Of a stretch of 64,000 bases of DNA, positions 1,817 through 60,800 are shown piece by piece. The translations under genes and the position numbers were made by a program. The notes under the pieces are model-generated. The model worked only from the letters and a program-made list of their open reading frames with translations, searched no databases and was not told the origin of the DNA. The stretch comes from Eledone cirrhosa (Eukaryota), in the NCBI GenBank assembly GCA_964016885.1, contig OZ024751.1, positions 17,422,001 to 17,486,000 of the forward strand, given 5' to 3'. How positions within the stretch are numbered: position 1 is the first letter of the stretch; every line of letters starts with the position of its first letter.

Positions 1817-2102
1817 TCACACATCAATCTAAAACCACTTTTCATATGTTGATTTAAAACTGCACTATCCACAAGTGTTTTTTAGCCTTCATATCATGTT
1901 CTCCTGTTTTATCTGATGAAAACACAAATATTATTGCATGATGATGTTTGTTTTTGAAATGCGCATAATAAAATACATGGAACTCCTTTAACAATCTTTT
2001 GATCTTATATTATGTATACTCCAGTCCTACAAACTGTAGAGTGCTTCTTATCCGATATCTGCATTGCTTTATTGTACTACAATAAAACTCACCTCCTACA
2101 TT
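1817..2102 (+). mobile_element. Family A hammerhead-bearing (TA)n-associated element, copy 1
   Basis: Near-identical to 12113-12355 (-), 38083-38493 and 59351-59637. Flanked by TA-rich repeats. Confidence 0.85.
1907..1973 (+). ncRNA. Type I hammerhead ribozyme (family A)
   Basis: TTTTAT-CTGATGA-[long stem II ACAAATATT/GATGTTTGT]-GAAA-TGCGCA-TA-ATAAAA. Stem I TTTTAT/ATAAAA, palindromic minimal stem III ATGCGCAT, AUA cleavage triplet. Confidence 0.85.
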
Positions 2103-3200
2103 ATATGGATATATGTATATATGTATGTACATATGTATATATATGTATATATGTATATATGTATGCATATGTATGTATATGTATGTATATGTGTATATAT
2201 ATGTATATACATATATTAATATACGTTTTAATTTGGTGGTTCCACACTGGGTAGAACTGGTCAGTATGCAATGTTAATCATGGCGTAATATGAATAAATC
2301 ACACGACGGTATGCAACTCATCCATCTTTGATGTCGAATCATGTTTGTGGTGGTGAAACGGTGTAAATATATGATAAAATGAAATGACAGGATGACAAAT
2401 ATACAAGTGCGGGATATATCAAAGGAAATAAGTGTTTGTGTAATAAATTGTTAGAACTTTCACTAAATTCCGTACCGCCTGCAGCTAAAAAATATCCATA
2501 TTGGGATAATGAAGCAGCTGCAAATTTAACTATTGTGCAAGTTTGATTGGCATGGGAAAGTATTCGTATATATATTCCAAGTTCTATATCGTGTGAAGAC
2601 ATTAACTGAGGCACGAACGAATACCTAGTTTTGCACTTCATACATACATATAAACACACACTCTCATGCACACAGAGACATCCATATATGCACACACACA
2701 CACACACACACACACACACACACACACACACATATATATATATATATATATATATATATATATATATATATATATATATATATATATACAGACACAAACA
2801 GACATATATAAATATACACACACACACATGCACACATACACCGACACACATATATATACGCACACACACACGCATGCCTGCACACATATATATACAGAGA
2901 GAGAGAGAGAGAGAGAGAGAGAGAGAGAGAGAGAGAGAGACAGAGACAGAGAGAGAGAAAGAGAGAGAGAGAGAGTGTGTGTGTGTGTCTGATGGTGAAG
3001 TTGGAAATAGCATGGAAAATATATGTTAGGGTCTGTTTTTCTTTTTTTCCTTGTCTTTGATTCGGGACAATTCTTTGAAAAGAGGGACAATTCTTTGAAA
3101 AAAAGTTTTGTAATGTATATAAAGTATATAAAGTATTACTGGTTTCGATGTAATTATTAAAATTCATTTTATTAAATGTTGAATATTACAATTAATAAGA

Positions 3201-3459
3201 ACTAGCAGAATGGCCCCGGCGTTGCTCGGGATTCTAAGCATAGATTCATATGTTTGTATCATGAGTTATTGCCAACATAGAAGCTTCGGTTTTTGTCATA
3301 TGTATTTTCATGTTGTTCCTATTGAAGAACAAAGTGATATTAAAGAGAAAGTCGTGTAAGGCATTGTAAGAAGGTAAAAGCAGGGAGATATATTGTTTCT
3401 AAACGTAAGAATATTAAAATGCATCAGACAGACAGACATTCTCTGTTTTATATATATAA
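3201..3459 (-). mobile_element. Non-autonomous Helitron-like element
   Basis: Minus strand ends in CTAGT after a GC hairpin (CCCGGCGTTGCTCGGG, 3215-3230). The other end reads TATATATATAAAACAGAGAATGTCTGTCTGTCTG, typical of non-autonomous Helitron 5' ends. Confidence 0.6.
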
Positions 3460-3725
3460 ATTAATAAGAATTAAAAACTAAAAATTAAAGATTTAAAATT
3501 AAGTGTTGGAGTATATATATAGGCATATATACCGAGATCTTAAACTATTTTTAGATTTAGACTTAAGCGTGTAAATATACAATACAATTGTTGTGAAATC
3601 TCTACTACATCTGTAGAATGTTGATATTTGTGTCTACTTCGTTCAATTCCGAGCAGCATGGTTTATTTATACCGTTGATACAATGTGATCTCAGTAACCC
3701 ATTGTCAGCTTTAGCATTAAATAAT

Positions 3726-4147
3726 AGTTTCTTATATAGGCACAAGGCCAGCAATTTGGAGGCAGGGGAAAGTCGATTAAATCGACCCAGATGTGCGACT
3801 GGTACTTTATTTTATCGACCTCGTAAGGATGAAAGGCAAAGATAACCTCGGCGGGACTTGAACTTAGACCTAAAGGGCCGTATCTCTATGCTGCAAAGCA
3901 TGGTGTCCGACTCTCTACCGACACAGCCAATCCACCGCCCTTGGCTATAGCATTAAATAATTATTTCTACTTTTGGCACAAGGCCAGCAATTATCCCAGT
4001 GCATTACTGGTACTTTATTTCATCGATCCCGTAAGGATGAAAGGCAAAGTTAACCTCGGCGGGATTTGAACTCAGACCATAAAGGCCCGTAACTCTTTGC
4101 TGCAAAGCATAGCGTCCGACCCTCTACCGATACTGCCAATCCACCAC
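3726..4147 (-). mobile_element. Two adjacent full-length SINE copies
   Basis: Reverse complement shows A-box-like TGGCAGTATCGG, B-box GAGTTCAAATCC and the central GCCTTTCATCC...GATAAAATAAAGTACC domain (Meta-domain-like, from recall). Direct repeat TAGCATTAAATAAT at 3712-3725 and 3948-3961. Confidence 0.85.
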
Positions 4148-4734
4148 TGACGATAAATCGGTCGGCGGGTTTGATCTACCGAACGTCCGACATAGGGATT
4201 AACGTGTTATTATTAATGGTGTTCCACAGACTATGTATTGTCAAAGTCTTTAGAAACTCAGATAGAATACTTTGTGATGTTTTCAACGTCTTTCTGCGCT
4301 CTAAATTCAAAACTGGCTCGATCAATCATGCTTTTCATAATTTTTAAGTCGATAGAACTAATCCAATACTAGGGTCGATTTGTTTTCCTGCATATCTCTT
4401 TCTCAGTTCCTTTCTCATATTATCACTGTCCTTTTCTAGACGAAATCTACTGTGCTCAGATCTGGAGATTGATTGGGATCACTGAGTTTAAAGGTCCAAA
4501 GACTCCCATGTCATTACAGCGCCACTGCAACTCCGTCAGGAGTTACGGTTCCATACATGCAAGAAGATGAATATTCCACGGGCGATTGTACTCCCTACCA
4601 ATTTCCCTCGCCGATTAAGTGTGACAAGTTGGGACCTTTCATTTACAAATGCAATCCATTCGACGAGGGTCAAACAGACAACCTTATTTCACTCATAATT
4701 CTTCAGTTTATATGTTATTATTTAAAACTCAATA

Positions 4735-58352: not shown

Positions 58353-59637
58353 TGTATGTATATGTGCCTTTGAGAAAAGCTTCTAAATTGATAAAGAATT
58401 GAATATATATTCAATTCTTTATCAATTTAGAATCTTTTCTCAAAGGCACATATACATACACCTCTTTAAAATATACCCATCTTCCTACCTTACGTTAAAG
58501 GGCATTATACACTCTATAATACTTGTTTACTCATTACCCTCTTTCTATCTTCACCTTGTAAAATCCTTCATAACATATACATTTGTTTTTTTGACGTTAG
58601 AATATTCATCCGCAATCATTATTATTTTTTCTCTCTATCATAAAACTTTTTAATCTCAATTTCATCCTTAATTTATTATTTTTTTCTCCCCATCAACGAA
58701 CTCATTCTTAATACATATTGACTCTTTATTCGCATATATTATCAATTCCTTCAATATACAAACTTTAACTTCACATTATTTTTCTCAAATCCTTCTACAC
58801 ACAAACCTTAATATTTTTCTCTTCGTTAATTTTGAAATTGCCACAATACTTATCAACATACACTTTTTTTGACGTTAGAATATTCATCCACAATTATTAT
58901 TTTTTCTCTCTATCTTCATACATAAATTCCCTTCGTTAATTTTCAAATTCCTTTAATTTATACATTATCTTCCAACGGTTCTCAACCTCTCTATGTAAAA
59001 CAATATAACTTTTTCTCAGTTATAAAAACTATCTCTTTCTCTCTATCACCCATCTCTCCCTCTCCACCTTCACTCTCATCTCCTCCCCCTTTTTTCATCC
59101 TTTCCACCCCCCCCCCTCCCTAAATAAAATATTTTTTCCTCGCACATATCCTCCCTTCGTTAATTTTCAAATTATTTTAGTTTATACATTATCTTCCAAC
59201 GGTTTTCAATCTCTCTATGTAAAACAATATATCTCCTCTCAGTTATAAAAACTATCTCTTTCTCTCTATCACCTATCTCTCCCTCTCATCTCCTCCCCTT
59301 TTTCATCCTTTCCACCCCCCCCCCTCTCTAAATAAAATATTTTTCCCAATATCACACATCAATCTAAAACCACTTTTCATATGTTGATTTAAAACTGCAC
59401 TATCCACAAGTGTTTTTTAGCCTTCATATCATGTTCTCCGGTTTTATCTGATGAAAACACAAATATTATTGCATGATGATGTTTGTTTTTGAAATGCGCA
59501 TAATAAAATACATGGAACTCCTTTAACCATCGTTTGATCTTATATTATGCATACTCCAGTCCTACAAACTGTAGAGTGCTTCTTATCCGATATCTGCATT
59601 GCTTTATTGTACTACAATAAAACTCACCTCCTACATT
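58353..59637 (+). mobile_element. Longest family A element: 5' hairpin, non-coding body, hammerhead (59442-59508), (TA)n
   Basis: 108-bp near-perfect palindrome 58353-58460. T-rich body with an internal duplication (about 58929-59138 / 59153-59345). 59351-59637 matches 1817-2102. Confidence 0.7.
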
Positions 59638-59682
59638 ATATATATATATATATATATATATATATATATATATATATATATA

Positions 59683-60620
59683 TAAAAACAAATAACGAAA
59701 CGAAATTAAATTTCGTTTCGTTTGTAACTCACGTTTGTATGACTGACGCTTAAACAATTAAGTTAAAAATGTACATCCACATATGTATACTGAAATACTA
59801 GTATGCATATGAATACACACACGTGTACATATGTAGATGTACCGAGTTTTTCACTGGTCACTTTACTGTGAGTGTCCAGCTATTATGTATGTAAATACAC
59901 AGACAAATCGGTTTTTAGAGTCATACTGGTTTTTGAGGAAACACCTTTCCTCTATTCTCCAGAAAGCCAGACAAGGAATATTGGACTAGTTTCGATGTTG
60001 TTACATCTCATCAGCAATATTTACCTATCTTCCGGCCTTTCTAGAGAATCGTAAAAGCACATATCGTTATATGCTTTTTCTATGAAAATTAGTAGTGGGC
60101 AGAATAATTTGCATAGAGCGTGAGTACGTACCGGTTCAACGGAGACGATAAAAACAAATAACGAAACGAAATTAAATTTCGTTTCGTTTGTAACTCACTT
60201 TTGTATGACTGACGCTTAAACAATTAAGTTAAAAATGTACATCCACATATGTATACTGAAATACTAGTATGCATATGAATACACACACGTGTACATATGT
60301 AGATGTACCGAGTTTTTCACTGGTCACTTTACTGTGAGTGTCCAGCTATTCTGTATGTAAACACACAGACAAACCGGTTTTTAGAGTCATACTGGTTTTT
60401 GAGGAAACACCTTTCCTCTATTCTCCAGAAAGCCAGACAAGGAATATTGGTATGACTCTAAAAACCGGTTTGTCTGTGTGTTTACATACAGAATAGCTGG
60501 ACACTCACATTAAAACGACCAGTGAAAAACTCGGTACATCTACATATGTACACGTGTGTGTATTCATATGCATACTAGTATTTCAGTATACATATGTGGA
60601 TGTACATTTTTAACTTAATT
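59683..60620 (-). mobile_element. Family F retrozyme-like element: 466-nt unit, ~300-bp direct repeat, 5' inversion
   Basis: 59683-59983 is repeated at 60149-60449 (offset 466). 60450-60620 is an inverted copy. (TA)n on both sides. Confidence 0.9.
59977..60021 (-). ncRNA. Canonical minimal type I hammerhead ribozyme (family F)
   Basis: Minus strand: AATATTG-CTGATGA-GATG-taacaa-CATC-GAAA-CTAG-TC-CAATATT. Perfect 7-bp stem I, G10.1-C11.1 stem II, palindromic stem III ACTAGT, GUC triplet. Confidence 0.92.
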
Positions 60621-60667
60621 ATATATATATATATATATATATATATATATATATATATATATATATA

Positions 60668-60800
60668 TGTAGATAAATCTACCAAGAGTTTACGGTAGTG
60701 TCCAATCCGTATGAAGAACTCAATGTATTCCGGATATCATGGAAAGAAGAGATGTAATGAAAAATCACTTTCGGTGAAAGATAAACGGTATACAGAGTCA
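60668..60800 (-). mobile_element. Family G 3' terminus (identical ~60-bp piece at 36319-36378)
   Basis: TGTAGATAAATCTACCAAGAGTTTACGGTAGTGTCCAATCCGTATGAAGAACTCAATGTA directly follows (TA)n at both loci. Confidence 0.7.

Follow-up and report, generated by a model that had tools for sequence, protein, structure and literature searches.

What gave rise to the islands that carry hammerhead ribozyme folds and abut (TA)n tracts in a 64,000-nt stretch of the Eledone cirrhosa genome (GCA_964016885.1, contig OZ024751.1, positions 17,422,001-17,486,000, from an assembly of 3.0 Gb; the whole stretch is called the window below)? A first-pass annotation had taken them for unrelated, non-coding families belonging to a large, diversified system of Penelope-like elements (PLEs) or retrozymes that targets (TA)n. 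The system as such stands. Judged from its sequence, and with a probability of roughly 80%, it would consist of 5'-truncated insertions of at least seven autonomous PLE families (six of Hydra type, one of Neptune/Nematis type) and of three hammerhead repeats devoid of an open reading frame (ORF), all inserted in existing (TA)n. Eleven listed families are treated, X being the one at 20763 and Y the one at 44030; the other letters are those of the first-pass annotation.

The hammerheads were searched with a strict descriptor (type I, palindromic stem III permitted) and with a relaxed one, which demanded the exact core CUGANGA or allowed one core change. By the strict scan, the window contains six hammerheads, whereas 80 dinucleotide shuffles (40 global and 40 local) contained none. 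With the relaxed descriptor, nine exact-core hammerheads were found against a shuffle mean of 0.03 (maximum 1 in 30 local shuffles), by which chance is ruled out, while the class with one core change (4 in the window against a mean of 0.67, maximum 3, n = 30) is weak on its own. A descriptor demanding a stem III loop gave zero matches in the scan. In all 11 listed families, the blocks follow the type I order, and in none the order site-GAAA-CUGANGA of the SGC type described in PMC10085705; outside these families, no SGC descriptor was applied to the window. The sites and coordinates reported earlier were correct, and two mirror hammerheads, at 14014 and 35017, had been overlooked. As single copies, the 16 reported hammerheads fared unequally: eight have the exact core (five of A, C at 35200, H and F), M and D were accepted only with one core change, and six (B, L, 20763, C at 43235, N and 44030) failed the descriptor.

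Searches of the assembly with all 11 families (best 40 of 113-4,456 candidates scored; 30 loci each, nine for X) put these failures into context. The descriptor was matched by 28/30 copies each of A, C and H, 24/30 of Y, 23/30 of F, 19/30 of M, 8/30 of L and 8/9 of X. Given these rates, most single-copy failures are mutations of individual copies. None of the 30 copies of B or N matched, and D matched in 0/30 with the exact core and in 24/30 with one change. The B core CUGAGAA occurs verbatim in 24/30 loci (with the three-way junction kept and a 6-letter core) and the D core CAGAAGA in 26/30, and both aberrant cores are therefore family traits. Neither is among the variants shown in the accessible part of the catalog of natural hammerhead cores by Perreault et al. 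(PMC3088659). Most B copies are cut off inside stem II and keep the 3' half of the hammerhead only (loci L031, L044, L052 and L102; window positions 10394 and 11748). N is an old, decayed family with 80-87% identity among its copies.

That the stems differ and still pair was borne out by 20 C-type hammerheads from a genome sample of 78 evenly spaced 10-kb stretches (780 kb): 97.1% of the cells are paired against 39-52% in slid controls (n = 20), and six of the nine stem II pairs are altered on both sides while the core is invariant, a covariation test that is inflated by the relatedness of the copies. RNAalifold favored a different stem I pairing for these hammerheads. Folding energies were unremarkable (z +0.4 to -2.9). 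F was the sole family matched by Rfam among the best 150 of 453 matches listed (HH9, under the gathering score), and the other Rfam matches in the window were mostly microRNA hits driven by microsatellites. As a separate observation, the hammerheads of X (20763-20815) and H (48556-48600) are identical over 15 letters that reach from the core into stem II, which hints at an exchange of ribozymes between PLE clades.

The term non-coding does not describe most of these families, as seven of the 11 (A, B, C, D, Y, X and H) run upstream into a Penelope-like ORF. It lies on the same strand in 24/30 loci of A, 15/30 of B, 15/30 of C, 4/30 of D, 23/30 of Y and 27/30 of H; in X, one of nine copies reaches the C-terminus of a Hydra-type endonuclease about 1.4 kb upstream (last 50 residues, CxxC and CxH present). 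In one A copy, two hammerheads at a distance of 3,709 nt enclose an uninterrupted ORF of 800 codons, whose product features the motifs RW (RWT), DKT, YRDD, CxCX5C, CxxC and CxH and no CCHH. The CxCX5C linker, CxxC and CxH are present together, without CCHH, in A, B, C, D and Y, with DKT in A and Y and RWT in A, the families in which the N-terminal motifs were read. The ORFs of B, C, D and Y are partial and show, by motif, a reverse transcriptase (RT) followed by a C-terminal GIY-YIG domain. Since the linker and endonuclease of A, B, C, D and Y are 33-51% identical at the amino-acid level, these five are not unrelated but are to be classed as separate families of one Hydra clade, to which X is assigned by one copy. 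Beside this, a near-complete ORF of a further Hydra-type family was seen directly upstream of a Y copy (L421, G000:C3:263051300-263053800).

The Hydra clade belongs to the PLEs with a C-terminal endonuclease (EN+) and was described with (TA)n targets, hammerheads and an element, Hydra-1_Obim, in Octopus bimaculoides (Craig et al., 2021, PMC8557442). As in that description, a single ORF encodes the RT, the CxCX5C linker and a GIY-YIG domain without CCHH, and DKT, CxxC and CxH are found. Likewise, the Hydra-type set shares the 3' hammerhead (canonical in A, C, Y and X, with fixed core changes in B and D), the (TA)n target, a pseudo-long terminal repeat (pLTR), the inverted 5' copy and the one-sided tail; a U.U at the base of stem II with a U cleavage site, common in the table of PMC8557442, occurs here in D, Y and M. 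In contrast to the published elements, the A unit measures 3.7 kb instead of mostly <3 kb, with 3' untranslated regions (UTRs) of 0.2-1.4 kb in this genome, the tail is 65-140 nt long instead of 30-40, and six or more families occur with roughly 10^3-10^5 insertions each. The available text of PMC8557442 makes no mention for Hydra of aberrant cores such as those of B and D, nor of the hairpin behind the ends that is described below.

The remaining families were assigned as follows. H has a CX4CxxC linker and a CCHH-like endonuclease and is to be placed with the Neptune or Nematis type, whose CX2-5CxxC linker and endonuclease CCHH it shares; it differs from the descriptions in PMC8557442 by DKS for DKG, an N-rich N-terminal extension and an ORF of >1,000 codons. 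The A and H proteins showed no pairwise similarity. No PLE ORF of their own was found upstream of F, M and N (0/30 loci each). Three of 30 L loci have upstream ORFs, two of them >130 nt away with about 30% identity to A and one an H copy 650 nt away, and these are read as neighbors and not as ORFs of L. N is likely another old PLE 3' UTR rather than a retrozyme because it is not tandem (0/30 loci) and two of its copies share >1 kb of further 5' sequence. The idea that X and N are short and non-autonomous, with a 5' end at a constant position, was abandoned in view of longer 5' extensions.

All families share one insertion footprint, PLEs and ORF-less repeats alike. Every family has two fixed 3' ends, a short and a long one roughly 55-140 nt apart, and a variable 5' truncation. 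TA follows immediately after the best-hit end in 29/30 copies each of A and B, 28/30 each of H and Y and 25/30 of D. In full-length A, the stretch between the two ends continues into the 5' UTR and the start codon; as the beginning of the 5' UTR, it agrees with what a tandem or circular template would give. Where two arms form an inverted pair, one of them stops at the short and the other at the long end in 83 of 86 distinct pairs from nine families (9/9 in F, 2/2 in L).

Behind these ends, sequence signals were found in copies that read through. A hairpin of the form RCTC-stem-T(N)-GAGY starts 5-10 nt behind the ends in 11/15 end classes of A, B, C, D, Y, L, X and N against 60/4,026 control sites, and in none of the five end classes of H, F and M. 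Its pairs covary across families, with A-U in 6 and G-C in 5 for the outer pair and C-G in 8, U-A in 2 and G-C in 1 for the first inner one; these hairpins were counted by an anchored pattern, and MAFFT gave no alignment. A different motif, TATCG, begins the sequence behind the H short, F long and M long ends and in one H long read-through.

The three ORF-less families are, by anatomy, to be regarded as non-long terminal repeat (non-LTR) retrozymes. Tandem monomers were found in 23/30 loci of F (466 nt), 11/30 of M (410-424 nt) and 1/30 of L (468 nt), with 13 further L read-throughs. They resemble the metazoan retrozymes of PMC7229834 in their ORF-less monomers of 420-468 nt, type I hammerhead and dispersed as well as tandem occurrence. 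Unlike published retrozymes, they show the PLE footprint, with a fixed short and a fixed long end in TA, and their end motifs correspond to those of given PLE groups; they are likely copied in trans by PLE enzymes. A PLE origin of retrozymes was proposed by Li, Clavereau and Pollet (2026, preprint 10.64898/2026.07.22.740005). The head-to-tail joint of F was present in contigs of 4/4 sequencing runs, in which an RNA circle and tandem DNA are indistinguishable.

Accounting for this footprint, the following course of insertion can be proposed. Element RNA would be excised from longer transcripts by its own hammerheads, the GIY-YIG domain would nick both strands of an existing TA tract, and each 3'-OH would prime cDNA synthesis at a different fixed site of a circular or tandem RNA. 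The two truncated cDNAs would then join head to head, so that one tract becomes two; passengers with the right end signal would be copied in trans. The core of this course, from the nicking of both strands by GIY-YIG over priming at two sites to head-to-head joining and the splitting of the tract, is considered probable. With a somewhat lower expectation, the hammerheads, mostly acting as dimers, presumably serve to cut the unit from transcripts of greater length. As B and D are abundant despite their aberrant cores, cleavage may be slow or dispensable, and a low activity of such motifs was shown by Cervera (2014, PMC4209133). The chances are slightly better than even that the hairpin is a putative binding site by which the Hydra protein sets the priming point, and that L, which bears it, rides on a D-like Hydra element. 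For F and M, which have no hairpin and share the TATCG end with H, the odds that they ride on an H-type protein are put at about even. Only tentatively can these parts be united into one whole, in which the hairpin pair is a protein-recognition code, enzyme-specific parasitic hammerhead circles follow Hydra by the hairpin and the H type by TATCG, about 300,000 hammerheads are present and TA tracts are doubled by splitting, the two most successful families having broken or new-variant cores.

Among the competing explanations, the one that survives best holds that inverted pairs stem from fold-back or template switching of a single cDNA, or from later DNA rearrangement. It gains from the near-perfect palindromes at many junctions of inverted pairs and from precedent, as inverted 5' copies and one-sided tails are known from PLEs and were ascribed to the resolution of an intermediate by the endonuclease. 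Nevertheless, its simplest outcome is the regeneration of the same end, whereas nearly all pairs combine two different fixed ends with a hairpin standing behind each, and it is regarded as unlikely, if still worth considering.

Considerably less probable is that the PLE reverse transcriptase writes (TA)n itself in the manner of a telomerase, by which the tracts would be products. TA stands at both ends of insertions, and the left and right tracts around 77 pairs add up to slightly more than splitting predicts in the mean (32.6 vs. 26.3 units); the excess is explained by later slippage, and the median of 28 units lies close to the 25 expected. Splitting also predicts a correlation between the tract lengths on the two sides, and one was observed (rho 0.39). 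In the sample, a PLE end next to a tract does not go with greater tract length (median 14.5 units, against 12 for the other tracts; p = 0.20), which speaks against the suggestion that (TA)n is a product; within the window the same comparison gave p = 0.02. The earlier claim on much of the (TA)n landscape is not supported: a hammerhead or PLE end is carried by 198 of 628 TA islands in the sample (32%) and 33 of 112 in the window, while 99 of the remaining sample islands have other repeated ends and 331 (53%) have none. The rebuilding of empty sites gave 36/300, 8/240 and 7/625 candidates, nearly all of them self-repeat artefacts. The one usable case (L026, an A copy inside a D element) has about 4 AT units in the host consensus and 8 and 35 in the filled site, and suggests growth of TA. 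On balance, the TA tracts are targets that insertion multiplies by splitting, and RT synthesis is not needed. Beside these elements, a 3' fragment of a long interspersed nuclear element (LINE) RT at 44260-44950 (+), presumably RTE-like, also adjoins (TA)n with its end and recurs at TA islands; therefore, other retroelements share the target.

There is little probability that F, M and L persist as satellites at the DNA level or as passive relics without being mobilized via RNA at present. The genome does contain long arrays of F; yet copies of F and M, 96-98% identical, are dispersed across numerous contigs, the F and L pairs in TA again combine a short with a long end, and a compensatory change is found in stem II of the F hammerhead. 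The weakest proposal, ten or more unrelated non-coding ribozyme elements moved by Naiad-type PLEs, could point to differing 3' UTR and stem sequences, to the three ORF-less families and to Naiads being listed for octopods with (TA)n targets, but it is refuted already for A, B, C, D, Y and H and very improbable overall, as the endonuclease of Naiads is N-terminal, canonical hammerheads are missing from them and they are described from cephalopods as remnants, whereas seven families here reach ORFs ending in an endonuclease and the traced ones bear hammerheads. Hydra is the matching clade.

Several points weigh against the interpretation as PLE insertions. Pfam found neither RT nor GIY-YIG in these ORFs, the sole trace being a weak GIY-YIG (E 0.012) in a relative with 40% identity, and therefore the clade calls rest on motifs and not on a tree with reference elements. 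A PDB sequence search gave no name for the ORFs, and the 2 and 20 proteins retrieved by homologue searches were unnamed or hypothetical. The Hydra assignment of X hangs on a single copy, and N has no ORF within 1.5 kb upstream in 30 loci. The end patterns were defined on the same loci in which the end rule was counted. The hairpin was missed at 4/15 Hydra-type end classes (C long, Y long, X long and L short), where read-through copies are few or interrupted, and TATCG at the H long end comes from a single read-through copy. Empty sites can almost never be reconstructed. Finally, the modules do not sort cleanly, as X joins an H-like hammerhead to the Hydra hairpin and M has a Hydra-like hammerhead and no hairpin.

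The system is not confined to the window. The genome sample contains 79 exact-core hammerheads against none in each of five shuffles, which fall in 24 clusters and correspond to a density of 101/Mb (bootstrap 73-131) or about 2.2-3.9 x 10^5 per genome, an estimate that leaves out B, D, N and decayed copies and may include a few false singletons. With 140/Mb, the window is ordinary for this genome. The expected enrichment of (TA)n was confirmed, as (TA)5 occurs within 300 nt downstream of 70/79 of these hammerheads against 22.6% of 4,662 random sites. Together, the 11 families amount to about 5% of the genome sample, with some overcount from low complexity. Two further observations concern copy arrangement: a tandem hammerhead repeat of 528 bp outside the listed families (L059:6637-7693), and several near-identical A copies about 27-28 kb apart (G000:C4:351.9-352.3 Mb), which are probably part of a larger duplicated unit.

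In comparison, about 2,000-9,000 minimal PLE hammerheads per genome were given in PMC4209133 and 14,255 active retrozymes for the axolotl (preprint 10.64898/2026.07.22.740005), against 2-4 x 10^5 hammerheads here, both with descriptors other than the present one. The families here share with the minimal hammerheads of PMC4209133 the palindromic or absent stem III, the extra base after A9, the many consensus families per genome, the mostly solo occurrence from truncated PLEs and the opposite-strand pairs. A repeat annotation of O. vulgaris lists 31 recently active PLE families, ribozymes and Hydra being unmentioned in the part available. No publication was found that counts hammerheads in octopods or describes a tail hairpin or twin priming for PLEs, although subscription papers, Repbase/Dfam and preprint supplements may hold them. 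The kinds of elements are themselves already known, and even a Hydra element from an octopus has been published; the literature consulted did not contain the scale, the strict rule of one short and one long end, the covarying hairpin and the fixed aberrant cores in B and D. These findings bear on PLE insertion, on the origin of inverted pairs and the one-sided tail, on the role of the hammerhead and on the enzyme that moves animal retrozymes. An intact young element of 800 codons, a sharp footprint, a candidate hairpin, matched passengers and natural core mutants make these questions directly testable. The share of the genome sample taken up by these families is also relevant to the annotation of repeats and to the question of how the TA-rich landscape arose.

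Within the window, the Hydra PLE A is represented by a 3' end at 1814..2100 (+; hammerhead 1905-1975, short end at about 2010, hairpin 2018-2042, long end 2100), a second 3' end at 12113..12355 (-; hammerhead 12238-12308), an inverted pair at 38083..38491 with hammerheads at 38206-38276 (-, long end) and 38386-38456 (+, short end), and a copy at 58353..59635 (+; hammerhead 59441-59509) that retains the 3' UTR in full, starting at the stop codon, and a short inverted 5' arm. B, also a Hydra PLE, has a 3' end at 9505..9911 (+; hammerhead 9724-9819 with the fixed CUGAGAA core) and two inverted pairs that have lost the core half (10394..10582 and 11748..11940). The Hydra PLE C forms an inverted pair at 34969..35398 (hammerheads 35017-35086, -, and 35200-35269, +), pieces at 42899..43440 (hammerhead 43235-43300, -) and a previously unlisted pair at 8083..8350, both arms of which are truncated inside the hammerhead. 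Inverted pairs of the Hydra PLE D lie at 13582..14088 (hammerheads 13692-13742, -, and 14014-14064, +, with the fixed CAGAAGA core) and, truncated in the hammerhead, at 12510..12728; another, at 36056-36250, stands next to inverted fragments of F at 35722-36030 (together 35722..36250). The 3' ends of X (20590..20897, -; hammerhead 20763-20815) and of the Hydra PLE Y (43933..44106, -; hammerhead 44030-44069) are followed by the Neptune/Nematis-type H at 48248..48809 (+), in which the last 30 ORF codons (about 48253-48342), the hammerhead (48556-48600) and the long end (48809) are preserved. The old N copy at 36641..37093 (-) has a decayed hammerhead at 36867-36941. M is present as one ORF-less monomer of about 420 nt at 10596..11027 (+), with a hammerhead at 10716-10758 whose core is mutated in this copy, and the ORF-less L (monomer 468 nt) at 11090..11717 (-; hammerhead 11223-11310), interrupted at about 11456-11640 by a repeat like a short interspersed nuclear element. 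F comprises 1.6 tandem 466-nt monomers (-) and an inverted arm (+) at 59686..60620 (hammerhead 59977-60021).

Further TA-anchored, often inverted repeat ends that had not been listed lie at 9980-10200, 14155-14330, 17630-18000, 18710-18830, 22755-23030, 35450-35660, 36320-36442 and 60670-60750. In the 9980 family, a tail hairpin is present and other copies bear hammerheads, and the 22755 pair ends in the 3' half of a hammerhead. Among the other contents of the window, an exon of a rhodopsin-family G protein-coupled receptor at 15376-16113 (+; 7tm_1, E 7.5e-48), which we take to be neuropeptide-receptor-like, has elements in its flanks or introns. Units of 17/34/51 bp make up a 5-kb satellite at 53283-58352, inside which 1.9 kb are duplicated, and DNA-transposon-like open frames are found at 45276-46445 (-; 389 codons) and 26365-26991 (-; 208 codons), the latter presumably mariner-like.

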